Origin: a virus
Length of the DNA stretch: 64,000 nt
Reading direction: 5' to 3' (one strand)
IMG/VR virus record: IMGVR_UViG_3300042879_003994
Span: 9,793 to 73,792 of that record
Part shown: positions 47,525 to 64,000 of the stretch, piece by piece
Layout of the letters: each line of letters begins with the position of its first letter
Position numbering within the stretch: position 1 is the first letter of the stretch
Notes under the pieces: model-generated
The model's input: the letters and a program-made list of their open reading frames with translations, nothing else
Databases searched by the model: none
What the model was told of the DNA's origin: nothing
Made by a program: the position numbers and the translations under genes

Positions 47525-48895
47525 ATGCCAACATCAAGAGAGATTTATGATTTAATTGTAAGCGGTAATCAATCTTTAAATACCGAATTAAGTTCTTTAA
47601 CGCCCTCTACTCAAGTCTTACTTTACGAAATAGATTTGTCCGAGATTGCGCCAACTATGATTAATTATAATTATAACGGCGAGCAACCTATAAATAATGG
47701 AATCTTCAGAATATATAATGATTATAATATATATAAATTATCCACAAATCCATATGGTACAATAAAATGGCAGCAAAATTATTATTATCCATTTCCAATT
47801 TTTGCAGAGGGATTTGAATATTCATCCGCTGGAAGTTTGCCAACTCCAAGAGTTGCTATATCTAATTTATCTCCAGATTATTCCTCTAATTCTTTCTATA
47901 GATACATTAGAATGCAGATGCAAAGTCTAGGTGATATTGTTGGCGCAAAATTTAGTAGAATTAAAACCTTTTTAAAATATCTAGATGGTGCAAATTTTTC
48001 TGGAAACGTAAATCCATTTAATCCAAATACAGGTCTATATGAAATAGAATTACCAAGGGATATATATTATATTGATAGAAAAACTGTAGAAAACAAAAAT
48101 ATTATTGAATATCAATTAAACACAATACTTGATGTCGAAAATTTAACTCTCCCAGCTAGAACGCTTTATGCTCAAAAATGTCCATTTCAATATAGAGGTG
48201 AAGGATGTGTTTACGAATATAATAGTAGATTAACAGACATACATAGTGGAGTTTATGCTTATACAGTTAATCCAGGATATACAGTTAGTGGGTTACAGAC
48301 TGCTCCACCAGTTGCCACAGATAATGATCAATTATTTATTGGAGGCGTATTTGCCACAGGCGCTGCTGGAACAGCAACAAATACTGCTATCTTTAGGATC
48401 ACTGGTGGATTAGGAAATTCGGGACTTTGGAGAGAAACTTCTCAATACGTATCTGGAGATTTTATATTTTTACAAAATAGAGGTTTAAAATATTATTACG
48501 TTTGTATAAATAACCACACGGCAGACGTATTTAATGCTCCACCAAATATAAATTATTGGGCTTCTGATTCATGTGCGAAAAGTATTAATTCTTGCAGGCT
48601 AAGATGGCTTAAGAACCCAGCCTTCAGACCAGTTATTTGGCCAGCTAATAGGAACGGAGAAAATTTTGTTCAGACAAGAAATCGAATTGAATCTCTTTAT
48701 GGTACAGGAGAAAGATTAAATCTTTGGGTTACTGGTATAAATGGAGTAGCAGTAAATTTCCCAAGAAGACCAGGATGCGAAGATCCTTCTTCTACTAGAG
48801 CGCACGGACTACCAAAAGATGCTTTTGGCAACTATCTAAATGGATTTTTACCATTTGGAGGATTTCCAGGAACAAACCAACCAGCTTCTCAATAA
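47525..48895 (+). CDS. Minor tail protein L-like
   Basis: YPFPI.AEGFE...GSLPTP, YYIDRK..E, CPFQYRGEGC, CAKSINSCRLR, FGGFPG. Confidence 0.88.
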   Translation: MPTSREIYDLIVSGNQSLNTELSSLTPSTQVLLYEIDLSEIAPTMINYNYNGEQPINNGIFRIYNDYNIYKLSTNPYGTIKWQQNYYYPFPIFAEGFEYSSAGSLPTPRVAISNLSPDYSSNSFYRYIRMQMQSLGDIVGAKFSRIKTFLKYLDGANFSGNVNPFNPNTGLYEIELPRDIYYIDRKTVENKNIIEYQLNTILDVENLTLPARTLYAQKCPFQYRGEGCVYEYNSRLTDIHSGVYAYTVNPGYTVSGLQTAPPVATDNDQLFIGGVFATGAAGTATNTAIFRITGGLGNSGLWRETSQYVSGDFIFLQNRGLKYYYVCINNHTADVFNAPPNINYWASDSCAKSINSCRLRWLKNPAFRPVIWPANRNGENFVQTRNRIESLYGTGERLNLWVTGINGVAVNFPRRPGCEDPSSTRAHGLPKDAFGNYLNGFLPFGGFPGTNQPASQ

Positions 48896-48896
48896 A

Positions 48897-49622
48897 ATGA
48901 TCGATAAGAAAAATAAAAATTTTATAAGAAATAAATCATTAGAAGATTTTCCTAATGAGACTTGCGGGTTTATAGTAAAAAATGAAAATAGATTTGAATG
49001 TATTCCATGCAACAACATAGCGGAAAATCCAAAAGAAAATTTTAAAATTTGTTCTAAAGAATATTTACAAATTAAAAATAGATATAAGAATATATTATAC
49101 CTATATCATAGTCATACAAATGGAAATGATAATTTTTCAGAAATGGATAAGAATTGTGCAGAAAATCTATGTTTACCTATCATATTATATAATACAGAAA
49201 GAGATAGTATTAAAATATATGAACCATCAAATATTAAGAAAGAATATATAGGAAGATTTTATCAGCACGGAAAATATGATTGCTTTAAATTAATAGAAGA
49301 ATTTTATAAAAAGGAAAAATCTATAGAATTTAAATATAATAAAGAATTCTATACAAAGACTTTAAAAGAGATGGATATAAAAAGTGAGGTTATTAAATTT
49401 TACGAACATAATAATTTTGTAATTATTAATAAAAACGAAGAATTAGAATTGCACGATATTTTATTAATTGATGCTTTTGGAGAAAACAAACCAAAGCATT
49501 TTGCGCTTTACATAGGAGATGGAAGAATTTTACATCAGCCCATGTTTGGTTTCTCAAAAATTGAAAATTATTGTAATTTTTATAGAAGGCGTACTGATTC
49601 AGTATTTAGGTTAAAGGTATGA
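48897..49622 (+). CDS. Tail assembly protein K-like (JAB/MPN + NlpC/P60)
   Basis: PNETCG, YHSH...S.MD JAB motif; YDCF...HFALY.G...LH NlpC/P60. Confidence 0.88.
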   Translation: MIDKKNKNFIRNKSLEDFPNETCGFIVKNENRFECIPCNNIAENPKENFKICSKEYLQIKNRYKNILYLYHSHTNGNDNFSEMDKNCAENLCLPIILYNTERDSIKIYEPSNIKKEYIGRFYQHGKYDCFKLIEEFYKKEKSIEFKYNKEFYTKTLKEMDIKSEVIKFYEHNNFVIINKNEELELHDILLIDAFGENKPKHFALYIGDGRILHQPMFGFSKIENYCNFYRRRTDSVFRLKV

Positions 49623-50383
49623 TAAGAGTAAATTTACATGGTAAATTGGGTGAAGATTTAGGAGAATCTTGGGACCTTGATGTATCAAGCGTCGCAGAAG
49701 CTTTAAGAGCTATAGACGCTAATACCAGAAGACTAAGGCAATGGCTAATAAACTATAAAGATCAGTATGAATATGAAATTTTAGTAGATAACCAAGAACT
49801 TTTTACTGAAAAACCAGAATACAAAAATATAGAAGAAATAAAAAATTCAGAATTTTGTTTAAACTTAAAAGATAAAATAAAAACAATAGATATTGTTCCA
49901 TCGATTATAGGATCTGGCGCAGTTGCAAAAATTTTTGTTGGTGCAGCAGTAATTATTGGCGCTGTAGCTTTAGCAGTATTTACTCCGTTTATTTTACCTG
50001 CTATAGCATTAGGTTTTGCAGGTTTAGGATTAATCGCAGCAGGAACCAGCGAATTACTTTCAAAGCCCCCACCATCTGTTCCATTTACAGCACAGCAAGT
50101 AAATCCAATTGATGGAGAAGGAGAATCTGGAGGACCTACTTCGTATTTATTCAATGGTCCTGTAAATACAGTTGGAGAAGGCGGACCTGTTCCAGTTGGA
50201 TATGGACAATTAATAATTGGTGGTAATAATGTATTTAGTAATTATGAAATTATTTATAGAGCTTATAAATCAGATTTCAGTGATACAACTTTACAAATTG
50301 ATTATCAAGGAGATACTCAATATCTATTTAATTCTAAATGTTACCTTATTAATCAACAATCATTACAGTCCTCACCTTTTTAA
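49619..50383 (+). CDS. Tail assembly protein I-like (ubiquitin-like + hydrophobic segment)
   Basis: VNLHGKLG...SVAEALRA...IVPSIIGSG, SYLFNGPVNT, PVPVGYG. Confidence 0.85.
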   Translation: MIRVNLHGKLGEDLGESWDLDVSSVAEALRAIDANTRRLRQWLINYKDQYEYEILVDNQELFTEKPEYKNIEEIKNSEFCLNLKDKIKTIDIVPSIIGSGAVAKIFVGAAVIIGAVALAVFTPFILPAIALGFAGLGLIAAGTSELLSKPPPSVPFTAQQVNPIDGEGESGGPTSYLFNGPVNTVGEGGPVPVGYGQLIIGGNNVFSNYEIIYRAYKSDFSDTTLQIDYQGDTQYLFNSKCYLINQQSLQSSPF

Positions 50384-50386
50384 TTT

Positions 50387-53300
50387 ATGGGTAATGCAAA
50401 TAAATATGCAGATGGTTTGAGTTTTGTCCTGTTTCCAGGAAATATAGCTTATGGAACAGTTGGATATAACTTTCCAGAAAGTACAGCTCAAGATGATGGC
50501 GGTGGAGCAGGTGGAAACATATCGTTAAGTTTTAGTGGATCAAGAATACCTTTTACTAATAGTCCAACGTTTCTTTATTATAGAGGACCAAGCGGTTATG
50601 CGGCAAATTATACTCCACTAGCAGTAATGACCGGTGGTTTAATACAAAGATTCTTTGAACGAGGCCCATCATTTCCTGGTTCTACATTCACTGGAAATGT
50701 GTTCGGTGCACCAGATTTAAGAACAATATTTGGAGTTAGTCCTAATACAGGCGTAGAAGGCGGTGTATTTCCACAAACAAATGGAGTCTTCATAAATGAA
50801 AGAACGAGAAATGGTCGAGCTTTTAATTCTATATCTCAGGTTAATATATTAGATTTAATTTGTGAAGGACCAATAGAAGGTTTTGTGACTGGAATATATG
50901 TGCCTAATTTGAGTGGTAAAACTACTGGTGACATTGGATATACAAGTGTTACTTTTCAACCATACGAACAAACTTATAGCAATCCAGAAACAAGATCTAT
51001 ATTCTGGGACGATGTACCAATAACAGATTTACAAGGTTTTTTTAATTTCCAATTTGCAGATTATAAATATACATATGGAGAAAAAACAAATGATCATACT
51101 ATCTATAATCCATATTTAAATCTTTACGAAGATAGAAGAGATTATTTTGGTAGACAAGTAGATAGAAATAAAATACCACTACAAACATCTGTTACTAAAG
51201 CAGTTGGAGATACTTTGTATGGATTTTATTTAATTAGTGGAAATAATCAAGTAATTTCACCAAAAACATATTACATATATAATACAGATGTGTCTTCAAT
51301 AAGAATTAATTTTAAGATAAATAGTCTTTATGAACAAATATTAACTGGAATAAATGCTGGTGACGTAGAGAAACATCTACAAATATTTAGGATCATAGTG
51401 TCTAGACTATTAAAAAATGGAGAGACTGTTCTATTGGATACTTCTAAATACTCTCCTTATATTAAGGACTATTATTCTAGGGATGAATTTGGCGCTCAAG
51501 GAAAAATCGCAAATAGCCCAGTAATTGTTCCATACGAAATTACATTAAGACCATATGCTGAAAATTCTCCTTGGTTTGAACTTTTCCCAAATCAAATAGG
51601 ATGGGCAATAGACGTAGTAAAAATGAGTAGAGAAGGCGTTGGTGGAGGATTTTCAACATCTACAACTGTAGATAGCATAACAGAAATTTATTCAGACAGA
51701 TTTACATATCCAGATGCAGCTTTAGTTTATTCAAAATTTGATGCAAGATATTTTAATCAAATACCCACAAGAACATACAAGGTAAGACTACTTAAGGTAA
51801 AAATACCAATTAATTATGATCCAATAACAAGAAATTATAATGGTCCGTGGAATGGACAATTTAAAGTTGCGTGGACAGATAATCCAGCTTGGTGCTTCTA
51901 TGATCTTATAACTAACAATAGATTTGGATTGGGGAAATATATAGATTCAAGTCTGACAGATAAATGGACGCTATATGAGATTGCTCAGTATTGTGATGAA
52001 CTTGTTTCTGACGGAACAGGTGGACTAGAGCCAAGATTTAGATGCAATGTTTATATTGCAAATAAAGAAGAAGCTTACAAAGTATTAAATGATATGGCAA
52101 GTATATTTAGAGCAATTATTTATTACTCAGCAGGACAAATTACTGTTTCTCAAGATTCATTAAAGCAACCTATCTATTTATTTAATAATAGCAATGTAAT
52201 TGAAGGAACGTTTAATTATTCTGACGCTTCAAAGAAATCAAGAAAAACTGTTGCATCAGTTAGATTTAATGATGAAAATGATAATTTTAAACCAGCTATA
52301 GAATATATTGAGGATAAAAATTCAATATTAAAATACGGCATAAGAGAAACAGATATTGTTGCATTTGGTTGCACAAATAAAAATCAAGCTAGAAGAGTCG
52401 GTAAATGGTTATTAACCACACAAAATACTGAAACTGAATTGGTAGATTTCCAAGTCGGTCTAGAAGGTAACTATATAAGACCAGGCGATGTAATATTAAT
52501 TCATGATCAGTATAGAAAAAATGCAGCCTACGCAGGTCGAACTGTAGAACTAACTACTGGCTACGCAGTTTTAGATCTGCCATATAATTTTACTAATACC
52601 TATGCAATAACTGGAGTCAACGCAAATAATTCATTTGTATTTAATATATTAACTCCTACTTATAATTTGAATTTAGGTACAACTTTAGGAGATCTTTATA
52701 GTACCGGATTTGTTGATATAACTTCATCTGGGGTCACAGGATTAAATAGCTCCTTCTTCAGAAGAGGTCAGATTCAAACTATAACAATTAATAATCCTCA
52801 AAATTATTTAACTAGTGGATCTGGTATATATACAAATAATATAAGAATAAATTTCCCATCAAGATTGTCTAATTCTGGGTATAGCTTACCTCAAAATACA
52901 GTCTGGGCAATAGATATTAATCCATCTGGTTATCTGGCAGCTGGCATTGATACAAGATCTCCTATCAATAATCCTTCAAATGCCTTATATCCAGGATATT
53001 ATTTAGAGCCATATCTAAATGAACCTAAAAAATATAGAGTCCTAACAATCTCAGAAAAAGAGCCAGAACTTTTTAACATTAATGCTCTAGAATATAATGA
53101 TCAAAAATATTATGACATAGATAATGTTGCAACTCTAGTCAATGTTCCTGTCAAACCAGGTTTACCAGTTGCGCCAAGTCTTTTCTTGAGCGGAATATTT
53201 AGAAGTCCAACTACAAATTCTTATTTAAGTAACCCAGCTGGAGCGCATTTTGTTACAAATCAAGGTGGAATAAATAGCATAATGTACAACATACAGCCAC

Positions 53301-53617
53301 CAAACAATAATGCTAATAATAGTTTATATTATGTCTATGTAAAGCCAACTTCTAATTTTACAAATTCAACAACTCCAGAGATCTATCTTGCAGATGTTGT
53401 TTCTCCTTTACTAATAAGAACTGGCCTAACCCCATTCAATTGGGCAAGTAATTTGATTCCTCCATTCTTGACACCAACAGGTTCGGGTTTTTACTACTTT
53501 AGGGTATTCGCTGAAAATGCCCTTGGCGAAAGAAGTTCTCCAGCTACAGGCCTATACGTCTTAACTGCCCAAGCTTCTGTTTTTAGCGTTATAGCTTCTG
53601 GATACAATATATATTGA
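50387..53617 (+). CDS. Tail tip / host-specificity protein J-like
   Basis: DLICEGPIEG, W.G.FK.AWTDNPAWCFYDL..NRFGLG, EPRFRCN, GCT...QARR.GKW, FN3-like C-terminus. Confidence 0.9.
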   Translation: MGNANKYADGLSFVLFPGNIAYGTVGYNFPESTAQDDGGGAGGNISLSFSGSRIPFTNSPTFLYYRGPSGYAANYTPLAVMTGGLIQRFFERGPSFPGSTFTGNVFGAPDLRTIFGVSPNTGVEGGVFPQTNGVFINERTRNGRAFNSISQVNILDLICEGPIEGFVTGIYVPNLSGKTTGDIGYTSVTFQPYEQTYSNPETRSIFWDDVPITDLQGFFNFQFADYKYTYGEKTNDHTIYNPYLNLYEDRRDYFGRQVDRNKIPLQTSVTKAVGDTLYGFYLISGNNQVISPKTYYIYNTDVSSIRINFKINSLYEQILTGINAGDVEKHLQIFRIIVSRLLKNGETVLLDTSKYSPYIKDYYSRDEFGAQGKIANSPVIVPYEITLRPYAENSPWFELFPNQIGWAIDVVKMSREGVGGGFSTSTTVDSITEIYSDRFTYPDAALVYSKFDARYFNQIPTRTYKVRLLKVKIPINYDPITRNYNGPWNGQFKVAWTDNPAWCFYDLITNNRFGLGKYIDSSLTDKWTLYEIAQYCDELVSDGTGGLEPRFRCNVYIANKEEAYKVLNDMASIFRAIIYYSAGQITVSQDSLKQPIYLFNNSNVIEGTFNYSDASKKSRKTVASVRFNDENDNFKPAIEYIEDKNSILKYGIRETDIVAFGCTNKNQARRVGKWLLTTQNTETELVDFQVGLEGNYIRPGDVILIHDQYRKNAAYAGRTVELTTGYAVLDLPYNFTNTYAITGVNANNSFVFNILTPTYNLNLGTTLGDLYSTGFVDITSSGVTGLNSSFFRRGQIQTITINNPQNYLTSGSGIYTNNIRINFPSRLSNSGYSLPQNTVWAIDINPSGYLAAGIDTRSPINNPSNALYPGYYLEPYLNEPKKYRVLTISEKEPELFNINALEYNDQKYYDIDNVATLVNVPVKPGLPVAPSLFLSGIFRSPTTNSYLSNPAGAHFVTNQGGINSIMYNIQPPNNNANNSLYYVYVKPTSNFTNSTTPEIYLADVVSPLLIRTGLTPFNWASNLIPPFLTPTGSGFYYFRVFAENALGERSSPATGLYVLTAQASVFSVIASGYNIY

Positions 53618-53619
53618 TT

Positions 53620-55035
53620 ATGAAAGTAAAAAATTTAAATTTAACCTTAGAGTGGCATACAGTTAGAAATATACCAAACTTTATAGACGTTAGTTCTAAT
53701 TTTCCTTCTTATAACGTAAAAGTTAAAAACAAAGAAGGAACTTTAATACATCAAAATCTAAATGTAGAAGATTATGAACCATTAATCGAATTACAATGTG
53801 ATCATTATGAATTTGCAAAGAAACCAAAGTTTCATATGGAACTTTTAAAAAATAAAGCTAAGAATACATTTAAATATAATTTTGAAAACAACTATTTAAA
53901 ATATAAAGAATTAAATAACAAACTAGGATTTTTTAAAACCCTAATATTTGAAGTAGATTACAATAATGATGGTAAAGGAGACTTTCAATTAGAAGCGGAA
54001 TATTCTGCTTTAGAGAATATAAATAAAGATCTATTATTCAATAAAATATATAGAAGTAGCGATTACTTAACTGTAAAATTTTTAATAAACAAAGAGTATT
54101 TCAAGCAAAATGAAATATATTCTTTATTAATTATAAGTGAAGCTTCTAATAAATTAATTAAAAATAAAAAACTAAATAATTTATTCACAGAAAATGTACA
54201 AGAAAAGTGGCTTGATGTTAATGAAACTACAGCACTACTAACTGTTCCCTTCATAGAAAGCGATATAGTTGAGATATCTGAAAATGTAAATATTAAAGTA
54301 ATACCATTAAACTATCTGCAATCTGAGATGTATAATTTCTTAAAAGTTAGAGAGTCCGAAGATAATATAAATGCATTTTATCATGAATTCTTTTCTAATC
54401 AATTATTCAACATCGGTAAAATATATAAACAAACAGTTAATAATGAGATGTTAATATTTTATCAAAATTATATATATTTATTTAATAACGAGAGTCTTAC
54501 ATCAAACTCTCTACAAACAGATATAAACATAAATGATATTACATTTAATAGATATTTTCCTTTACTAAATAAAGATAATATTAATAGAACAATCTGTTTA
54601 TCTGATGATTTAAATACTGACGATGTTTTAGATAATATATATAATATACAAAAAGACTATCTAGGCTATTATTCAAAGAATCTAACTGATTATGAAGATG
54701 TAGCTATAGACCTTGATTATCTACAAAATCAAGGTATAAAGAGGGTAAATATAGTTGAAATCGAGGAATTAACCGATACTTGTAATATTTATATTGAATT
54801 TATAACCAATTTTTATAGTAATGAGAAGTTCTATATTGAGACCAGTAATAACCTCAAATTCTATGAGAAATATAAGACAGTAATAGATGGTAAAGAATAT
54901 ATTACATTCTTATTTAAATATTCATATAATTTAGATACCCTAAATCAATATTTATCAGAGAATCCAGATAAAAGCAAGAGTCAAATAATTACTGATAAAG
55001 ATCTTATTAATTTTTCAGCAAAATTAATACTTTAA
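53620..55035 (+). CDS. Hypothetical protein (N/I/K/Y-rich)
   Basis: Long ORF following J. Confidence 0.7.
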   Translation: MKVKNLNLTLEWHTVRNIPNFIDVSSNFPSYNVKVKNKEGTLIHQNLNVEDYEPLIELQCDHYEFAKKPKFHMELLKNKAKNTFKYNFENNYLKYKELNNKLGFFKTLIFEVDYNNDGKGDFQLEAEYSALENINKDLLFNKIYRSSDYLTVKFLINKEYFKQNEIYSLLIISEASNKLIKNKKLNNLFTENVQEKWLDVNETTALLTVPFIESDIVEISENVNIKVIPLNYLQSEMYNFLKVRESEDNINAFYHEFFSNQLFNIGKIYKQTVNNEMLIFYQNYIYLFNNESLTSNSLQTDININDITFNRYFPLLNKDNINRTICLSDDLNTDDVLDNIYNIQKDYLGYYSKNLTDYEDVAIDLDYLQNQGIKRVNIVEIEELTDTCNIYIEFITNFYSNEKFYIETSNNLKFYEKYKTVIDGKEYITFLFKYSYNLDTLNQYLSENPDKSKSQIITDKDLINFSAKLIL

Positions 55036-58000
55036 CCTATCTTTTTATATACCGCGCTACTTAATAAACCGCCAGGTCTTTGCTGTTCTGTAATAACCCT
55101 AATAACCTGTGTCCTAACTTTCTCTGCTAGTTCTTTAGTTCTTTCGGCCTCTTGCCTTTGTTCTTCAAATACATTTGTCTGAGTCGTCTCACTCGTAACT
55201 CTATCTTGATTTAAATTAACTGTAACACTAACATTATTAACTGGAGAATAAGCACTAGTTTGGTCTTGAGAGTCCATATTTCCAACAGATCCGCCATTGG
55301 CAAATCTTTTAACTCTTCCAGAATTTAAATCATCAAAGAATTTTTTACCATAAAGATTGACGGCTTCTCTACGCATCACAAATTCTCCACCCATTAACAT
55401 CGCTGGTACATTATCTGTGTTTTGACCACCGCCAGCAAATCGTCTTATTTCTCCTCCATTCTTTGCGAAGGCCAATCCAGCTGCGCCAGCACCTAATAAA
55501 GCCTGATACCATCCTCCTCTTGATCTTGCGCTCGTTTGAGTATTATACTGATCTTGAATTTCTCTATTTAATCTAATATTTTCTTCTAGGGCTTCTTTAT
55601 TGGCAATATTTACACCCTCAACATAATTAAGATAATTCATTAAATTTGATTCTCTATCTTCTCTTATCTTATTTTGTGGATTGTTTGGATCAAGGATAGC
55701 TCTAAGACTTAATCTTGGATCAATCATATTTGCTCCACCAGTAGGATAAAGCGGATCGTTATATCTATAAACATTCTGTCCTAAAAATTGAAGTTCGCCA
55801 CCGCCAGCAAATTTTGGTATCATACCTCCATTTATCATCCCTAATAAGCCTGTGCCATATTTATTAACTGCACTTTTTCTAATTACATACTCCCCAGCGT
55901 TGAGCATCGCTGGTACATCGTCTCTTGTTCCAGAACCTCCTGTTACAGATCCACCAGAAGAATAGCCTTTGACTTTTCCTCCTTTATTAAAACCAAATAG
56001 GTTGCCTAATAGTCCACCTCCTCCACCACCACCGCCAAAGATATTACTTGTACTACCAAACAATTTTCCAAATATAAGATTTGTTGAGAATTCTAATGCA
56101 AGCTGCTGTACTTTATTGGCAATATTATTAGCAAATTGAGTAAAGGCATCACTAGCTGTAGCTGTGCCATTAGCAAAAGATAAGAAAGCATTATTAAATT
56201 CGCTTTTAATTGTTCTAGCGGTTTCTTTGGCTCCAAGTTGGGCTTCTCTAAAAGAATCCTCTGTTCTATAATCGAACTCATCAAAGAATGCAGCAGGAAA
56301 ATCTTCAAGTTGAGTTTGGCCACCTAATATTCTATTTTCTCTAGCAGTTTGTCTAGTTCCTCTAAAATCTTCGGCAAACATTAATCCTCTAGCTCTTTGA
56401 TTTAGAGCTATTAGTTCTTCCTGAGTGCCTTGAACTGTAAGAATGAATTTATCTAAATCTTTTACTCCGTTTTGTAGTAAATTATTAGTTTGTTCTATAA
56501 ATTTAGCATTTACTTTTCTTCTTTCTGTTTCATTAAGTATTGTCTTGTATATTCCTTCTTGAGTATCTAAGACCTTTCCAGCAACAATACGATTTGCATT
56601 TAAATCTTTATTTGTATCTAATACTGTTCTTGCATATTCATTTAATGCCTCTGGATTTAATGATTGTGCAAATTTTAGAGCTGCTTCATTTGAAGAAGAT
56701 ACATCACCAGCTAATTGTGCTCGTCTTAAAATATCGGCTTTTGTAAATCTTAGTGTTTTTTCTAATTCTTTATTATAGCTTTTTGTTGTTACGCCTAATT
56801 GCTTTAATACATCAGCTAAAGCTTGACTACCTGAATCTGCACTTTCGAAAGAAAGTTTTTCTAATTCGGTTAAAACTTCTACTACATTTTCTAGTGGAAC
56901 TCCTGCTCGAACTAATAAATTTCTTATTGGATTTAAAATTAAATTTGTTTCTTTTACTAGCTCTTCTTCGGCTGGGCTTGCTGCTCCAGATGGTCTTCTA
57001 GTAATACCAAGAGCTAGATCTTCTTCTGATATCCCGCCAACAGATCTTCCAATTACAGGAGTACCAACGCCTAACCTTTGATTTCTTTCGATTAAAGATG
57101 TTAAGGCCTGAGATAAATCTTGACTGAATTTTTGTCTTAATTCTGGTCTTTCTAGAATCTCTGTTCTTAGCGCTGTACCTCGACCAGTTCTTAACTCAAG
57201 TATAGCATTAGTAAATTTATTTAATTCATCTCCAGTTAATTGTTTATCTTTTGTCAATTCCAATATATTAGATAAACTTTCAGTATTTGATGCATTTGTT
57301 TGAAGCGCAACTTGAACTGCTCCAATCTTTTGTTGAATATCTTGTAAATTGCCTCCTTCAATTGCTGATTTTAATCCTCCTAATAATTTCTCTGGAGTAT
57401 TGGCTAATATTGTCGCTAAAGCTTCATTACTTTGAGTTAATACTCTTTGCCTCTCATTATCTTCTAATTCATCTGATTTTAATTTTTCTAAAGAAGTATT
57501 ATAGTCTACAACAGCAGAAGAAAATACTTGTAGTTTATCTTTATTTTCCTCAATACTTTTATCTAATTTATCTTGCGTTTGATTATTTTTATTTAAAATG
57601 TTATAGAGGGCAAGGGCTGCGCCAGCCAAAGTAGCTAATATACCAGCTTTTTTACCAAATATGCTTCCACTTAATCCAAAAGATAAAGCTTTAGTAGCAA
57701 CATCTAGCGCGTCAGTAGCTTTATTTTGACCACCAACTAATTCTTTTAAAGTTTCATTTATTATTGGAACGCCTATAGAGAGAGCCAATAAAGCTCTGCT
57801 TCCAATTACAGCGCCACCAGCTAATAATGGTGCAACAAAGTTTGGAATAAAACCACCAGCTGCGCCAGCAGTTTTAGCTTTCCCGCCATATCTTCCTATC
57901 CCTTGGCCTAAACCTAAAGGTTCATCTTTTGTATTATATACTCCCAAACCAAGTGGATTTGAAGCAGAAGTTAATCTGCGATCTTGACCAATTCTTACTT

Positions 58001-60632
58001 TAGCTGGAGATACTCCTGCCATAATTTCTCTATCAATAGCTTCATTTAATGCAGAAAAATTAGGAATAAATCCTCCAGATTTATTTTTATAACGAGCGAT
58101 TTTATCATTTAGAAATCCAGATAAGAATGCTTTTCTCGCTACGTCATTAAGTAAATCTTGATTTACAGAACCTTTAGCTTCATACCCACCAGGCATGAAG
58201 TTAAATAATTCTTTAAGATTTCTATTTGGAAATGGAAAATCTATTAGAGCAGATTGACCACCTTCGCGAGGCTTAAAACTTTTCGTAGCGAAAGCTACGG
58301 CAGTTTCAAAAACTGTTCCCACAATAGATTTAAATGATCCTGCATTAGCTAATTGATTGATACTTGTAATTTTTGGAAACTGACCATTTGATAATTGAGA
58401 GATATAACCATTGACAAATTGAACAATATTTTTTGCTAAAGATTCTTCTAGTACGGCATCTTCTGGTCTAATCGCAGTCTTTTCATTGAAACCAGATTTA
58501 TTAAACGAAACACGATACCTATTTCCTTGAGGATCTGTAAATGCTCCAGTGCCTATTGAAACTCCAGTTTTTGCTGGATATATCATAGATAATTTTGAAG
58601 TAAATCCTAAATTTCTTTCTTGTTTTAATGATTGAACTCTTGCTGGTCCCAAAGCTTTATCTATAGCAGTTTTTCCATATCTGTTAGATAGTACCGATCT
58701 ACTATAATTTCTTTTTAGCGCCTCTTCTAATGGTAAATTAGGTGGTATTCTAGCAAAATTTGGTATAAATCCATTACTTGCATATGGATTAAAACCATAT
58801 ACTGAACCAAATGCATCCTTGTAATTTTTTCCAGCCATACTTTGACTAGGAGGCATAATCGCTGGTTGAGATAATCCTGGAAATCTTCTTACTTTTTCCG
58901 CAGAATTATAAGTTATAGAGCCTTCTCCAGGTATGTTCATTCTACGAACATATCCAGGAGAATAACCACCAGCTAATGCTCCTAATATTTCTGAACTTGC
59001 AAAATTTGGAATAAAACCTTGGCTTTTAGCTTTTAATGTTCCACCTCTTGTAGTAACTCCTCTCCCAGCAAGACCTCCGGCTATCGTGGCGGAAAGAGCA
59101 GCAGCTCTTTCTCTTTCTATAGTCTGTTGTCTAATAATATTTAAAATTTTATTCTCAACATCTAAAACACTAATTTGTTTATTATAAACAGCCTGAACAA
59201 GAGCGGGCTCTTGAGCAAGTACTTGATTTATTTTGGTTTGTATTTGAGCACGTTCCTGAGCTTTTACATTAATATTTAAAATAGTTTGTAATGAATCTGC
59301 AGCAAATTTTCCTAAATTGATTAATAATTTTCCTAATACTGCAGTAGCCAATACTACTCCAGGACCACTTATAAATTCCCCGATTCCCTCTAAGATGCCT
59401 CTTCCAATTCTACCTCCAGTAGTCTTTGAGTCAACGTCTAATTGTTCTAATCCTCTATTTAATAACTCCAATAGATTTTCAAATGTAGGTTGAAATGATA
59501 TCCTTCCTATGTCTGCTCCAACTTTAGTTAGATTTACAAATGTTTTATTAATTAAAGCTGATAATGTTTGATTTAAGGCTTCGTTTCTGAGGACGGCTTC
59601 ATTTGTTGAACTAGATGAAACTTTTAGTGCATTATTATATACAGAATATTCTTTACCTAAATCAGCCAAAGCAGCTCTTAAAATGTTTATCTGGAAGACT
59701 CCACCAACCTGCTCCGCAACTTGCGACCTTTGCGTATCACCTAAAGTGTTAAATGTTGTTGCGAGATTAGATAATATCTGAATTGCAGGTAAAGTATTAC
59801 CTTCTATAGTTCTGACTTGAATACCCAATTCTTCAAGCGCATCTAACGTATCCGTTCTTTGAATTCTAGTGAAAATTGTTTTAAGAGAGTTTCCAATTAC
59901 AGCACCACCTCTAGCAGTAGTTTGCTGAACGCTTGTTACGATAGCTAATAGTTCATCAAAATCAACACCTACGTCTTGTGCAGAACTACCGACTCGTTTA
60001 ATAGCTTCTGCAAGGTCAGCGCTACTTACAGCAAATGCAGCGTCAACATTAGCTAATTTATTAATAATGATGGTTGAATCTAGAGCAGCATTACTAAAAC
60101 TGTTAATTGTAGCTGTAAGAGCTTCTACTGATGCAATTGTATCTAAACCACTTAAACGAGTTAAAATTAATGCATCTCTAGTTCTTTTTAAAGTTTCTTC
60201 TAAGCCTAAACCTTGACGAGAGAATTCGGTGGCAGCTTGTGCAACTGTATCAAATGTTTGAGCTGTATCTCTAGCTACAGAAAATAAACCATTTCCAAAT
60301 TTTTGTAAACTATCTGTACTAACATTTAAAATAACATTAATGTCTGTTAGTGATTTTTGTACTTCTATTGTGCTTCTAACTAATGATGTAAAAGCTCTTT
60401 CTACTCCAAATATTAAACCTGCACTTGCACCGAAGGCAATAACACGAGCATTAGATGCGTCTAATGATTTTTGAAATTCATTTGCTGCTCCAGTAATTCT
60501 ACCAAGAGGCTGAGTAAAAGCTTTCTCATTTAGACCTTTAAATTTAAAGTCTCTACCCAAGGCCCTTTGAATATCTCTTTCGAGTTGCCTTGTATCTGCA
60601 CCTACAGAAATTGTAGCCGAAGTCCTAGCCAT
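55032..60632 (-). CDS. Tape measure protein with internal repeat-bounded modules
   Basis: TP901-like TMP N-terminal region (GNSLKTIFTRI), helical A/L/E-rich body, DxVPAMLxxGE motifs, 4x GFIPNF; GTGTAA at 60657-60662. Confidence 0.9.
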   Translation of the reverse strand: MARTSATISVGADTRQLERDIQRALGRDFKFKGLNEKAFTQPLGRITGAANEFQKSLDASNARVIAFGASAGLIFGVERAFTSLVRSTIEVQKSLTDINVILNVSTDSLQKFGNGLFSVARDTAQTFDTVAQAATEFSRQGLGLEETLKRTRDALILTRLSGLDTIASVEALTATINSFSNAALDSTIIINKLANVDAAFAVSSADLAEAIKRVGSSAQDVGVDFDELLAIVTSVQQTTARGGAVIGNSLKTIFTRIQRTDTLDALEELGIQVRTIEGNTLPAIQILSNLATTFNTLGDTQRSQVAEQVGGVFQINILRAALADLGKEYSVYNNALKVSSSSTNEAVLRNEALNQTLSALINKTFVNLTKVGADIGRISFQPTFENLLELLNRGLEQLDVDSKTTGGRIGRGILEGIGEFISGPGVVLATAVLGKLLINLGKFAADSLQTILNINVKAQERAQIQTKINQVLAQEPALVQAVYNKQISVLDVENKILNIIRQQTIERERAAALSATIAGGLAGRGVTTRGGTLKAKSQGFIPNFASSEILGALAGGYSPGYVRRMNIPGEGSITYNSAEKVRRFPGLSQPAIMPPSQSMAGKNYKDAFGSVYGFNPYASNGFIPNFARIPPNLPLEEALKRNYSRSVLSNRYGKTAIDKALGPARVQSLKQERNLGFTSKLSMIYPAKTGVSIGTGAFTDPQGNRYRVSFNKSGFNEKTAIRPEDAVLEESLAKNIVQFVNGYISQLSNGQFPKITSINQLANAGSFKSIVGTVFETAVAFATKSFKPREGGQSALIDFPFPNRNLKELFNFMPGGYEAKGSVNQDLLNDVARKAFLSGFLNDKIARYKNKSGGFIPNFSALNEAIDREIMAGVSPAKVRIGQDRRLTSASNPLGLGVYNTKDEPLGLGQGIGRYGGKAKTAGAAGGFIPNFVAPLLAGGAVIGSRALLALSIGVPIINETLKELVGGQNKATDALDVATKALSFGLSGSIFGKKAGILATLAGAALALYNILNKNNQTQDKLDKSIEENKDKLQVFSSAVVDYNTSLEKLKSDELEDNERQRVLTQSNEALATILANTPEKLLGGLKSAIEGGNLQDIQQKIGAVQVALQTNASNTESLSNILELTKDKQLTGDELNKFTNAILELRTGRGTALRTEILERPELRQKFSQDLSQALTSLIERNQRLGVGTPVIGRSVGGISEEDLALGITRRPSGAASPAEEELVKETNLILNPIRNLLVRAGVPLENVVEVLTELEKLSFESADSGSQALADVLKQLGVTTKSYNKELEKTLRFTKADILRRAQLAGDVSSSNEAALKFAQSLNPEALNEYARTVLDTNKDLNANRIVAGKVLDTQEGIYKTILNETERRKVNAKFIEQTNNLLQNGVKDLDKFILTVQGTQEELIALNQRARGLMFAEDFRGTRQTARENRILGGQTQLEDFPAAFFDEFDYRTEDSFREAQLGAKETARTIKSEFNNAFLSFANGTATASDAFTQFANNIANKVQQLALEFSTNLIFGKLFGSTSNIFGGGGGGGGLLGNLFGFNKGGKVKGYSSGGSVTGGSGTRDDVPAMLNAGEYVIRKSAVNKYGTGLLGMINGGMIPKFAGGGELQFLGQNVYRYNDPLYPTGGANMIDPRLSLRAILDPNNPQNKIREDRESNLMNYLNYVEGVNIANKEALEENIRLNREIQDQYNTQTSARSRGGWYQALLGAGAAGLAFAKNGGEIRRFAGGGQNTDNVPAMLMGGEFVMRREAVNLYGKKFFDDLNSGRVKRFANGGSVGNMDSQDQTSAYSPVNNVSVTVNLNQDRVTSETTQTNVFEEQRQEAERTKELAEKVRTQVIRVITEQQRPGGLLSSAVYKKIG

Positions 60633-60690: not shown

Positions 60691-61698
60691 CTAATTAATT
60701 CCATGAAGCTTCATTAGATCGGCCATGCTTAATGTGCCTCCCATTTTTTCTGCTTCCTTATGCAAGCTTACGTTTTGATCGTCTGCCCCGATTTTAGCTA
60801 AGTCTTCTTTTTTTGCTCCAACTATAGAAGTTCCCACTGCTCCTTCATTGTTTTTACTTTTAGATTTATTTAATACTTCTTCGACATTTTTACTACTTTC
60901 TAACCAATCTATTAATCTTTCTGGATCATCATAATACTCATCAGCGGGTTTATGTTTTGCTTCAGATAACGCATTTTTGAAATATCTAGCGTAACCAAAA
61001 ACTTCCATTTGGTAGAATGTAAGATTAACAATTGGCTTTCCATAAAGATAATATGGGTTATCATTACATATATTAAATAGACTAAGAAAATAAGATGAAA
61101 GAGCTATTCTTTTTAAATTCTTTTCACTAAATTTTTTATTTATAATTCCATATATATTTACAATTTCTGATAAGTCTTTATTTTCTAATTCATCGAATTC
61201 TGTCTCAGAGAAGAAACGATCTATAAGGGATATATCCTTGAATAAAGAATTAAACATATAATATTCATTAATTTTTTTATTAGCATAATCTTCAACAGTA
61301 AAGCCAAGTAAATCTTTTCTTTCCGTTAACAGTGAGATTAATTTAAAATTTTCTTCTTTTATCTGTTTATTGATGTAATCGATATCATCGTTCTTAAATA
61401 ATTTTGATTTTGTAGTCTTTAGTGACAATACATATGACTTTATGTTAGCTATCTCTTTATTCTTTTCGTCAGACCAAAGTTTTTCTTTGATCAAATATTC
61501 TTCTTTTTCTTTTTCAGTAGGCAAACCATTATTTTTAGCTTTTCTTACAAAATCTTCTCTTCTATAATCAACATCTCCGGAATCAAAACTAGTATTATGT
61601 TTATAGTAGATCTTTTGATCTTTAAAAAAAGATAAGGTATATCCATTTAATATATCAATGAAAAGAAGCCTTAATTGGTTTTTATCTTGAGTTTCCAA
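60691..61698 (-). CDS. Tail assembly chaperone-like protein
   Basis: Directly upstream of the TMP; LTFYQ motif; TTG start with GGAG SD. Confidence 0.55.
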   Translation of the reverse strand: METQDKNQLRLLFIDILNGYTLSFFKDQKIYYKHNTSFDSGDVDYRREDFVRKAKNNGLPTEKEKEEYLIKEKLWSDEKNKEIANIKSYVLSLKTTKSKLFKNDDIDYINKQIKEENFKLISLLTERKDLLGFTVEDYANKKINEYYMFNSLFKDISLIDRFFSETEFDELENKDLSEIVNIYGIINKKFSEKNLKRIALSSYFLSLFNICNDNPYYLYGKPIVNLTFYQMEVFGYARYFKNALSEAKHKPADEYYDDPERLIDWLESSKNVEEVLNKSKSKNNEGAVGTSIVGAKKEDLAKIGADDQNVSLHKEAEKMGGTLSMADLMKLHGIN

Positions 61699-61701
61699 TC
61701 A

Positions 61702-62463
61702 TTATTTCTCCGAAGTAGTCTCATCTTTTTGAATCAAAGCGAGTAATTTAGAGAATTCTTCTTCTGTTGCGGCCCTGCCAATATACCAGAAGCTAATAAG
61801 ATATAATAGTTTTTGCAAAGCTATCTTCTCTATATTAAATTCTGATTCTTCAATCTCATCGTATCTCTTAAGTTTTTCTTCATAAGAACCTTCTCCGAAA
61901 AGCTCTTTTAGTTTTTTATCTTCACCTTCGATTAAGCTTAATTGTAAAACCCACCACATGATTGTTTTATTTCTTGCTCTGTTCTCGGCGGTTTGCTCGA
62001 ATAAATTAGCTTGAGCCATTTCATACTTTTGCAACAAATCTCTAGCGTCATTCATTTCATTTATAACTTTTTGTAGAGCCTCTTTTTCCTCACTGTTTCT
62101 AAGAGCTTCCTCTTTCATAGAAAGCTTTTGGAATTCACTTTGAAGATTAAAGAAATTATTGTATAAATTATTATACTCTTTTTGCTCTTCATCGCTCAAA
62201 ACTCCACCATCATTATTAAATCTTTTAGCCAATAGAGCCCTAGTTAATAGACCAGCCTTAATACCCTCTGATAGTTTAACGCCATAAAATAATTCAGCTT
62301 CATCAAACAAGCTTCTTGTTGGTTTCTTAATACCAAGTTTTACTGGTACTGTAGTTTTAACTTTAGATGTTACTTTAACTTCCTCTCCTTTTTCATTAGT
62401 AGAGACATCTACTTTTTCTATTTCCTTCTCATGGTAAACATCGAATGTAAACATTGTTTTCAT
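61702..62463 (-). CDS. Tail assembly chaperone-like protein
   Basis: Between tube and TMP; acidic coiled coil, IKKPTR. Confidence 0.55.
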   Translation of the reverse strand: MKTMFTFDVYHEKEIEKVDVSTNEKGEEVKVTSKVKTTVPVKLGIKKPTRSLFDEAELFYGVKLSEGIKAGLLTRALLAKRFNNDGGVLSDEEQKEYNNLYNNFFNLQSEFQKLSMKEEALRNSEEKEALQKVINEMNDARDLLQKYEMAQANLFEQTAENRARNKTIMWWVLQLSLIEGEDKKLKELFGEGSYEEKLKRYDEIEESEFNIEKIALQKLLYLISFWYIGRAATEEEFSKLLALIQKDETTSEK

Positions 62464-62735
62464 ATTTTTTCTCCATTATTCTCAATAATTTCATTTAAAT
62501 ACTTCTTTATCTTTCCATAATAAACAACGCCGCCAATTGTTTTAATAAATAGGTGTCTTTTCTCATCGTTCCAATCTCTATAACTCTTAATAAAGTTAGG
62601 ATTTTTGAAGATAGTTAAACTTGGATTAGAGATACCGAATTTATCCTTAAGATTTTTCTGTATGCTTTGAACAGAGAGGCTATTCTCTAAAATCTGATCA
62701 ATGCTAAAATTATAATTTATTTTTTTAATTTTCAT
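62460..62735 (-). CDS. Hypothetical protein
   Basis: ATGA-coupled ORF. Confidence 0.65.
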   Translation of the reverse strand: MKIKKINYNFSIDQILENSLSVQSIQKNLKDKFGISNPSLTIFKNPNFIKSYRDWNDEKRHLFIKTIGGVVYYGKIKKYLNEIIENNGEKI

Positions 62736-62956
62736 TTTATTGATATGTTTAATTTGGTGAAACTTTCTTCTATTTCTCTTATAGCGTCATTTGCGTTATC
62801 AAGGACTCTTTTACGTATTTTTTGATAAGTTTCATCATTTATATTATAACCAGAATCACTTAAATCTTCAAGAATAAAAAAGAAATTCTTGTAAATATTC
62901 GTAATTTTTCTCTTTATTTGAAAAAGAGTAATATCTTTAATTGGATCATTCTCCAT
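62732..62956 (-). CDS. Hypothetical protein
   Basis: AAGGT SD; GTGTAA at 62995-63000. Confidence 0.65.
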   Translation of the reverse strand: MENDPIKDITLFQIKRKITNIYKNFFFILEDLSDSGYNINDETYQKIRKRVLDNANDAIREIEESFTKLNISIK

Positions 62957-63002
62957 AATTTTACCTTTATTTTAACCTTTAACCTTAACTTAAGTTACAC
63001 CT

Positions 63003-63039
63003 AAAAAAAAATAACCCCCGCAAAACGCGAGGGTTATTT
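63003..63039 (-). terminator. Rho-independent terminator after the tail tube gene
   Basis: Minus strand AATAACCCTCGC-GTTTT-GCGGGGGTTATT followed by a T run. Confidence 0.85.
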
Positions 63040-63061
63040 CATTTATAATATAATTTAAATA

Positions 63062-64000
63062 TTATGCAAGACCACTAATGAATAATCCATTTAGAGTATC
63101 TTGAGGACCACCTACTTGAGTACTGAATGTCAATGTTACTGATTTATTAGTTCCGATATCGGAGCTAAATTCTTGACTATCAAGCTTGGCGCCCTTTAGT
63201 TTGAATTGTGCTACTGTAGCTCTTGAGGTTTCGCAACCTGGAGCCTTAATTGTAACAGTTGGATTATATGTTGCAGTATCATTACATACTAATTCAGCAA
63301 TATTACCAGTTATGATATCTGTTACTTGAGCATCTACGCTTAATGTTACTGTTAGTGGGAAATCAATTGGACGAGCGAAAGCAAATTTGCTTCCGAGCTT
63401 CTCAATTGGAGTACGAGCCAAGTCAAAGCTCAATGTGTAGCTTTGAATATTCATTGTTGTTACGTCGGCTCCTCCACCAGTTGTTTGAGGAATACTTAGG
63501 GTAATATCTCCTGGGCGAAGTGCGCTAATACCACTAGCAGAACTTCCACCAACATTTTGAAGGGCTACTGGTAATTGATAATAATTTGGTAGTGAACTAC
63601 CATCAGCAGGATTGACTGCTGGAACAAAGTTACCACTAATTCCCTTTTGGAAATTCATGTTAAGACCTTCAACATTAATTGTTGTTGTTGGGAAGTTACC
63701 AACAGATCCTTCTGTTGAATAAGAACTAATGAATCCGTTTCCTACACCAATAACGCCGTTGCTGGCTGCACTAGAATCAGTAAAGCCTACAGCATCACTT
63801 CCTTCTGGTACTGTGCGGATAAAGTAATTTCTCTCGTCTTGAGTTGCATTCAAGAATCCGGAGATTGCAGAAATTTCGCTAGGAGATCCACCGCTTGCAA
63901 TTGTAAATCCTAAGAGATTTTCATTAGCAAGATTAGCGAGAACATAACTAAAATCTAAAGCAACAGTTGGATTTGTTAGGATTACGCGATCAATTGCTGC
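63062..64000 (-). CDS. Major tail tube protein (5' truncated by window end)
   Basis: Frame is open to 64000 (AAIDRVILTNPTVALDFSY...); S/T/G-rich beta protein upstream of chaperones and TMP, followed by a strong terminator. Confidence 0.75.
   Translation of the reverse strand, partial: AAIDRVILTNPTVALDFSYVLANLANENLLGFTIASGGSPSEISAISGFLNATQDERNYFIRTVPEGSDAVGFTDSSAASNGVIGVGNGFISSYSTEGSVGNFPTTTINVEGLNMNFQKGISGNFVPAVNPADGSSLPNYYQLPVALQNVGGSSASGISALRPGDITLSIPQTTGGGADVTTMNIQSYTLSFDLARTPIEKLGSKFAFARPIDFPLTVTLSVDAQVTDIITGNIAELVCNDTATYNPTVTIKAPGCETSRATVAQFKLKGAKLDSQEFSSDIGTNKSVTLTFSTQVGGPQDTLNGLFISGLA

Follow-up and report, generated by a model that had tools for sequence, protein, structure and literature searches.

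A Tape Measure Protein of an Uncultured Siphophage with an Exchangeable Middle Module Fenced by GFIPNF Junction Peptides

A real, widespread and so far undescribed variant of tape measure protein (TMP) architecture is encoded in the DNA analysed here, a stretch of 64,000 nucleotides covering positions 9,793 to 73,792 of the IMG/VR virus record IMGVR_UViG_3300042879_003994 (hereafter the window, which is the last 64 kb of this 73.8-kb record and has a GC content of 30%). The TMP, designated P0001, holds in its middle an array of modules fenced by four copies of the peptide GFIPNF. Recombination between phages has exchanged the module at the centre of this array, with borders that coincide exactly with the second and third copies, and the evidence for this exchange is solid.

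P0001 consists of 1,866 amino acids and is encoded by an open reading frame (ORF) at 55032-60632 on the minus strand, as are all the features of this protein given below. It is a member of the TP901 family of TMPs, as revealed by a match of 96.7 bits (cut-off 33.2; E 2e-27) to the Pfam family PF10145 (PhageMin_Tail) over residues 121-311, which constitute the core of this family (59700-60272). Many PHROG families of TMPs also match its N- and C-terminal parts, with E-values down to 3e-55. The protein fits the setting of a TMP in other respects, being long, encoded among tail genes, and showing both hydrophobic segments and a C-terminal region rich in Gly.

The Junction Peptides

The presence of four exact GFIPNF motifs in this TMP had been reported in an earlier note, made by a model from the letters of this DNA without database searches. 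A degenerate DNA pattern for GFIPNF, run over the 64-kb window, confirms it: the pattern has exactly four matches, all of them on the minus strand, and none in 100 shuffles used as a control. All four lie inside P0001, starting at residues 539, 621, 854 and 927. They correspond to junction motif 1 (residues 539-544; 59001-59018), motif 2 (621-626; 58755-58772), motif 3 (854-859; 58056-58073) and motif 4 (927-932; 57837-57854), and they delimit three modules, namely unit A (545-620; 58773-59000), the middle module (627-853; 58074-58754) and unit B (860-926; 57855-58055).

The logo derived from 419 distinct instances of the junction reads [A/K][S/A]xG[F/Y][I/V]PNF[A/S/V/T], with G, P and F being invariant and N present in 98% of the cases. 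The four copies of the window differ from one another at synonymous positions, and 152 instances of GFIPNF in relatives are encoded by 35 distinct 18-mers. Since synonymous codons vary while the amino acids hold, the junction is conserved as a peptide and not as DNA. When the whole insert is modelled with AlphaFold2, the predicted local distance difference test score (pLDDT) drops below 50 around each of the four motifs, between parts predicted with more confidence; the motifs behave in the model as predicted disordered, flexible linkers. Among the papers of the library searched, none contains GFIPNF, GYIPNF or FIPNFA, and the sole match to GFVPNF comes from an unrelated paper on human serum proteomics.

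Exchange of the Middle Module

Relatives of P0001 were collected with a search restricted to residues 530-940, which retrieved 908 TMPs, and the 120 best were examined in detail. Their middle modules form six clusters at identities of at least 40%. Two of these relatives, P0015 and P0016, are 99% identical to the TMP of the window over the first 538 residues and 96-97% identical in unit B, while their middle modules are only 20-24% identical to that of P0001. The identity between the proteins stops where motif 2 ends and restarts with the initial residue of motif 3.

The same picture is observed at the DNA level. Codon-level nucleotide identity to the related locus L001 is 0.90 in the N-terminus, 0.79 in unit A, 0.49 in the middle module, and 0.87 in unit B. 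By blastn, homology to L001, L039 and L040, three relatives of differing divergence, is lost at 58750-58755 and regained at 58073-58077, so that the breakpoints lie 0-5 nucleotides from the edges of motifs 2 and 3, which are the 5' and 3' borders of the swapped cassette, respectively. Over 12 kb, blastn against L001 reveals no other non-homologous island, and therefore no neighbouring gene has been swapped together with the cassette; a co-swapped gene of the immunity type was looked for within these 12 kb and not found. In addition, the cassette type of the window has been found, at 59-64% identity, on a backbone that is only 55% identical.

The proposal that the motifs bound a swappable cassette, and that the domain enclosed in collected GFIPNF-containing TMPs would be polymorphic, is upheld by the six types of middle module and by the breaks in DNA homology. 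As for the variation in cargo that had been anticipated, the variants do differ widely, but all of them are divergent alleles of one TMP-restricted family and not unrelated cargo.

Conservation of the Array in Related TMPs

In all 120 relatives, three or more G[FYH][IV]PNF motifs are present, and their arrangement is the same throughout. Their layout comprises a unit of 74-78 amino acids, a middle module of 211-337 amino acids and, in most of them, a unit of 57-69 amino acids followed by a fourth motif. The order of units and motifs is hence conserved across the 120 closest relatives of a family with members in the hundreds. Two of the 120 (P0067 and P0102) hold an extra module of 155 amino acids provided with its own additional motif. 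In IMG/VR, 68 related loci have been found.

Within the insert, conservation is strongest in units A and B, for which the alignment displays dozens of invariant columns. Unit A shows the pattern AGGYxPG...YNSAE...QPAIMPP...GFNPY, whereas unit B reads RE..AG...NPLGLGVYNTKDEPxGLxQG. Neither of them matches any family. Model confidence is only modest for both, and unit A, with a pLDDT of about 70, is predicted as a small beta structure. The resemblance between the two outer units claimed in the earlier note lacks statistical support: a comparison with hhalign, from which the motifs were removed, gives a probability of 0.4% and an E-value of 0.17 over about 10 aligned columns (AG..P..vR), and a paralogy of the two units is likewise not supported.

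In TMPs more distant from P0001, five to seven motifs alternate with other modules, and unit A still comes first and unit B last, bracketing the whole array. One of these modules, of 662 amino acids (L053:7480-9465), matches the Pfam family PF16581 (HIGH_NTase1_ass) with an E-value of 6e-8, above the Pfam cut-off. This module also carries a P-loop-like GTAGIGKT sequence, and represents a nucleotidyltransferase-type module inside a distant TMP. A second motif-fenced module, of 105 amino acids (L052:7057-7371), displays a DGNHR motif and a sub-threshold match to ParB_N (E 0.005). In another TMP (L063:4423-6261), a tandem duplication within a single protein is evident from three paralogous modules in a row, each about 200 amino acids long and fenced by junctions; none of the three has a match in Pfam. 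A Pfam search on seven multi-module relatives detected PhageMin_Tail only, and GNAT-like modules, guessed by eye in L063 and L067, were dropped for want of Pfam support at E-values up to 0.1. The picture of a row of enzymes in these proteins may therefore be said to be only partly documented, and in the window it relies on one candidate domain.

The Middle Module, a Basic Domain with an Enzyme-Like Set of Residues

The middle module of P0001 has an isoelectric point (pI) of 9.99, and the pI of all 120 variants lies between 9.6 and 10.3. An alignment of 37 middle modules, which covers the six types at a mean identity of about 20%, has identified seven residues that are invariant in 37 of 37 sequences: G772, F775, E776, D798, F810, K820 and K834, while position 818 is always occupied by Asp or Glu. 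The six types are homologous and represent alleles of one domain family. G772, F775 and E776 belong to the GTVFE sequence (residues 772-776; 58305-58319), located in a predicted helix (residues 138-156 of the model). They are followed by D798 (58239-58241), by E818-A-K820 (58173-58181) in a predicted strand and by K834 (58131-58133) in the helix after this strand. The basic character of this unit, and the GTVFE, Asp and EAK elements that the earlier note had pointed out as an E...D...(D/E)xK pattern, are thus recovered, the pattern being invariant across all six types. The invariant charged residues, together with the constant pI, point to a pocket whose ligand is fixed; a reading as a contact interface is also compatible with them.

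AlphaFold2 predicts for the middle module a mixed alpha/beta domain (pLDDT 80; predicted template modelling score, pTM, 0.66). It has three long strands at the N-terminus and a pair of long helices, with E776 in the second one, followed by the D798 loop, the E818-x-K820 strand and the K834 helix. Structural modelling had been proposed as a check on whether this segment is plain helical TMP or a PD-(D/E)xK fold. The model is not plain helical, but no PD-(D/E)xK fold has been recognised in it, either with Foldseek or with VIA-align.

The order and spacing of the conserved residues match those of PD-(D/E)xK nucleases (Mrr_cat PF04471; Bse634I, Cfr10I): a helix with GxxFE is followed after about 22 amino acids by Asp, after about 20 more by (D/E)xK, and then by a conserved Lys on the next helix. 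The basic character of the module is a further point in common. In contrast, no profile or structural match to these nucleases has been obtained in the searches made here, and the predicted strand order of the module is non-canonical. Searches of the middle module and the whole 412-aa insert against Pfam, PHROGs and the chains of PDB returned nothing meaningful. "Nuclease-like" is therefore a best guess for this module and not an established assignment.

A profile search of 1.84 billion representatives has retrieved 347 clusters with the middle-module domain. The best 150 of these 347 clusters consist of long TMPs or of contig-end fragments that still carry the motif, which rules out stand-alone versions of the domain among these 150. 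No match has been obtained with tblastn and megablast in 50,697 GenBank phage records (INPHARED). A scan of 185,579 species genomes, covering hosts and prophages, found only two short contigs that match the insert (L071 and L072), of 2-3.5 kb, binned into metagenome-assembled genomes of a Proteobacteria and a Flavobacteriaceae member. Both contigs are probably phage fragments, and they therefore provide no reliable host assignment. From its distribution and its residues, we read the middle module as a new, basic domain restricted to TMPs and provided with an enzyme-like invariant residue set.

Hydrophobic Segments, C-Terminal Repeats and Possible Processing

Hydrophobic segments were defined with the Kyte-Doolittle scale as values above 1.4 in a window of 19 residues. 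The first one (residues 418-446; 59295-59381) is located about 100 amino acids before motif 1, a spacing that is alike in 182 of 186 full-length relatives, in which the upstream hydrophobic peak lies at a nearly constant distance (median of 103 amino acids). The second segment (residues 933-957; 57762-57836) directly follows motif 4, and a third one is found at residues 988-1014 (57591-57671). In the 186 relatives, the hydrophobic peak after the last motif appears at a median of 100 amino acids, and only 10 of them show a peak inside the array.

The C-terminal region contains two repeats. Repeat 1 (residues 1553-1612; 55797-55976) reads GYSSGG...DDVPAMLNAGEYV...GGMIPKF-AGGG, and repeat 2 (residues 1724-1781; 55290-55463) reads GGEIRRF-AGGG...DNVPAMLMGGEFV...GRVKRF-ANGG. 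Both conform to the pattern [FY][AS]xGG ... D(D/N)VPAML..GE(Y/F)V ... G..(I/V)..F-A-x-GG, and they align with the FHFATGG...GEFVF...GYATGG sequence of lambda gpH. This repeat appears, from the alignments, to be a widely shared TMP unit, placed in the part of the protein that contains the cuts of lambda gpH and T5 pb2. Repeat 1 holds a fifth, hybrid motif that the earlier note had missed, in which GMIPKF (55809-55826) is followed by AGGG (residues 1603-1612).

T5 pb2 is cut after R1127 (PMC10038345), and the T5 record reads NSFVPR/AEGG at this site (the slash marks the cut). The alignment places the FVPR/AEGG cut of T5 on EIRRF/AGGG and KVKGY/SSGG of the window, as well as on KFHF/ATGG of lambda, and this lambda site falls in the Gly-rich region where gpH is known to be cut (PMC12617516). 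GMIPKF/AGGG of the window unites the junction-peptide and the FAGGG types of motif in a single peptide. By analogy with these proteins, processing at the motifs is plausible. With regard to the T5 cut, the title of reference 36 in PMC10038345 reports an involvement of the host. Lambda gpH (J02459; L070) also shows a GGMIPMF sequence at residues 105-111, just before a hydrophobic stretch at 116-140. This arrangement mirrors GGFIPNF plus the hydrophobic stretch at motif 4 of the window, a likeness that is short and not significant.

Proposed Mechanism and Alternative Explanations

The explanation that we favour, and to which we give a little less than an even chance, is that of a basic, fenced insert with an exchanged and probably enzymatic middle module, placed in the cytoplasm and separated from its neighbours by junctions that act as hinges and probably as processing sites. 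In this explanation, a polar, strongly basic insert (residues 530-932) between two hydrophobic stretches comprises three separately folding modules and four copies of the junction. The middle module would be an enzyme that binds polyanions, with a divergent metal-dependent nuclease or phosphodiesterase as its likeliest identity. Once the TMP is ejected, the hydrophobic stretches would enter the inner membrane and the basic insert would lie in the cytoplasm beside the entering DNA; if these stretches span the inner membrane, the positive-inside rule would place the insert on the cytoplasmic side. The junction peptides would function as hinges and, by analogy with the FVPR/AEGG site of T5 pb2, probably also as processing sites that free the modules.

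Several observations weigh against this explanation. The lumen of a tail tube, about 3-4 nm wide, would be too narrow for three to six copies of a folded 25-kDa domain. In the model, the D798 loop has low confidence and the strand order is unlike the canonical alpha-beta-beta-beta-alpha-beta core. With Foldseek, no E-value below 0.03 was obtained for the middle-module model in PDB and BFVD (best template modelling score in PDB, 0.16). Pfam, searched at E-values up to 1, yields no nuclease family, and PHROGs is equally empty, for 37 of 37 members, while the profile of the 37 modules retrieves from PDB only chance matches (lectins, E 0.02, through a GxxFE-like word). The hhalign comparison with Mrr_cat, the only family covered by profile-profile comparison, with an alignment built here from 25 sequences of proteobacterial loci, has a probability of 0.15%. 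The majority of modules in relatives are devoid of a recognisable enzyme family. The likeness to T5 comprises only 4-5 residues and is statistically not significant, and no peptidase family has been found in P0001 by Pfam at E-values up to 1.

A broader and bolder version, which we consider unlikely, would make the TMP of a large aquatic clade of uncultured siphophages a plug-and-play delivery platform. In these phages, a self-catalysed or host-catalysed cleavage of (A/K)(S/A)xGFIPNF(A/S), possibly dependent on the Asn, would free interchangeable, ready-made enzymes, including a new TMP-restricted nuclease-like family, on the cytoplasmic side of the inner membrane during DNA entry.

The exchange of the middle module may also have arisen at a host interface, a possibility to which we give some weight while holding it rather doubtful. 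The module would contact inner-membrane factors used for entry, or be seen by defences or superinfection-exclusion proteins, and its swap would change the route or allow escape. The conserved residues would then be structural and the junctions hinges, with neither an enzyme nor cleavage being needed. It has been reported that TMP regions determine the dependence on ManYZ, that siphovirus TMPs are a binding target of the membrane nuclease SNIPE and that variable TMP regions track susceptibility to it (PMC13190303). TMPs thus meet inner-membrane proteins and SNIPE during injection, and therefore the cassette could be a determinant of interface or escape. A determinant of host range or escape would be expected to vary in this way, with one module replaced between phages that are otherwise almost identical; the module lies near hydrophobic segments of the membrane type, and the lack of both a co-swapped partner gene in the 12 kb of L001 and an enzyme fold recognisable by Foldseek or VIA-align would also suit this proposal. 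Nevertheless, E, D, D/E, K and K, plus GxxF, are invariant at about 20% identity, a pattern that catalytic or ligand pockets typically show and diversifying binding surfaces do not; the same extreme pI is found in all alleles, and the near-invariance of the junction peptide is left unexplained.

We find it quite improbable that the insert is instead a structural conduit or plug, stored extended in the tail tube and refolding into part of a trans-envelope channel or into a plug, with the motifs docking to the tube wall or to the tail assembly chaperone. Lambda gpH* has been proposed as a periplasmic channel (PMC12617516), and the GGMIPMF of gpH lies right before its hydrophobic stretch. The model of the middle module is elongated, with strands of 10-16 residues, long helices and an unusually low structural similarity to globular folds, and the position of the array is fixed relative to the hydrophobic segments. 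However, a purely structural piece is unlikely to tolerate alleles of 20% identity or the addition of nucleotidyltransferase-like and ParB-like modules, and the motifs are predicted to be disordered and not packed, in a prediction made without a partner. Far less probable still is that the 18-nucleotide repeat itself acts as a hotspot of recombination, the encoded peptide being devoid of function. The breakpoints do match the motifs within 0-5 nucleotides, but this is what selection for intact modules would leave, and a mismatched stretch of 18 nucleotides is not long enough to support homologous recombination. A signal at the DNA level is largely refuted by the codon variability of the four copies and of the 152 instances, in which G, P and F are invariant and N nearly so.

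Relationship with Known Systems

Among the closest parallels to the TMP of the window are TMPs that are cut. T5 pb2 (pb2* plus pb2C) and lambda gpH (gpH* plus gpHC) are cleaved in a Gly-rich region adjacent to a hydrophobic stretch, which frees a functional C-terminal piece, and lambda gpH shares with the TMP of the window the unit that follows (..VPA.L..GE.V..). However, T5 and lambda have one known cut each, near the C-terminus, whereas in the window a related peptide appears four more times in the middle of the protein, where it separates modules that can be exchanged. T5 pb2 has no exact copy of GFIPNF.

Domains embedded in TMPs are also known. The TMP of mycobacteriophage TM4 holds an embedded motif. 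T5 pb2 carries a metallopeptidase motif, and peptidoglycan hydrolases occur in other TMPs (PMC12617516); these proteins share with P0001 the presence of a functional insert different from a coiled coil in a TP901/lambda-type TMP that is carried in the tail. The known inserts are cell-wall hydrolase motifs, whereas that of the window, which shows no signature of wall hydrolases, combines a strongly basic character with junction fences and cassette exchange.

The concept of one large polypeptide that is delivered with the DNA and split into several activities is shared with the polyvalent proteins (Iyer et al. 2017, PMC5512222), a work in which tape measure proteins are not mentioned. The ParB-like and nucleotidyltransferase-like modules in relatives of P0001 are a trait of this kind. 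Polyvalent proteins typically hold a processing peptidase of the zincin type, none of which is found in P0001 in the Pfam search described above. They are recognised by several disparate enzyme domains, whereas the TMP of the window has one candidate module, which belongs to no recognised family. Effectors of the Sle1 type from contractile injection systems (PMC13277306) resemble the TMP of the window in having a TMP-related scaffold, transmembrane parts and an exchangeable functional domain. Nevertheless, they are cargo of intracellular, tail-like particles of actinobacteria and hold this domain at the C-terminus, while P0001 is a phage TMP with a motif-fenced array in the middle of the protein.

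Genomic Context

The source of the window is an uncultured, AT-rich siphophage with a lambda-like tail tip. Genes similar to L, K, I and J of lambda are located at 47525-53617 on the plus strand (the K-like one at 48840-49622), convergent with the TMP gene, in contrast to lambda, where the TMP gene precedes the tail-tip genes on the same strand. The J-like gene is followed by an ORF of 473 amino acids whose end overlaps the stop of the TMP gene by four nucleotides, the whole plus-strand block spanning 47525-55035. Upstream of the TMP gene, in the position expected for the tail tube and chaperone, there are five ORFs of 335, 253, 91, 74 and 263 amino acids (60691-63853, minus strand), none of which has a PHROG match at E-values up to 0.001.

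Significance

TMPs are known as the rulers of tail length and as conduits for DNA entry; a few of them hold wall-degrading motifs, and two, those of T5 and lambda, are known to be cut. What this family adds is a conserved array, in the middle of the protein, of independently folding modules joined by one junction peptide, at which modules are swapped, added or removed. Whichever explanation applies, the domain family of the middle module, with 347 clusters and absent from INPHARED, PHROGs and Pfam, is an uncharacterised and experimentally tractable target. If the module is an interface with host factors or defences, it would be a determinant of host range at the inner membrane, a timely possibility given the recognition of TMPs by SNIPE. 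Should the peptide serve as a processing site, variable proteins could be delivered into the host by siphophage tails ahead of the DNA; these TMPs would then be to the tail what the polyvalent proteins are to the head, and the peptide with its flanking units would offer a natural scaffold for cargo loading.

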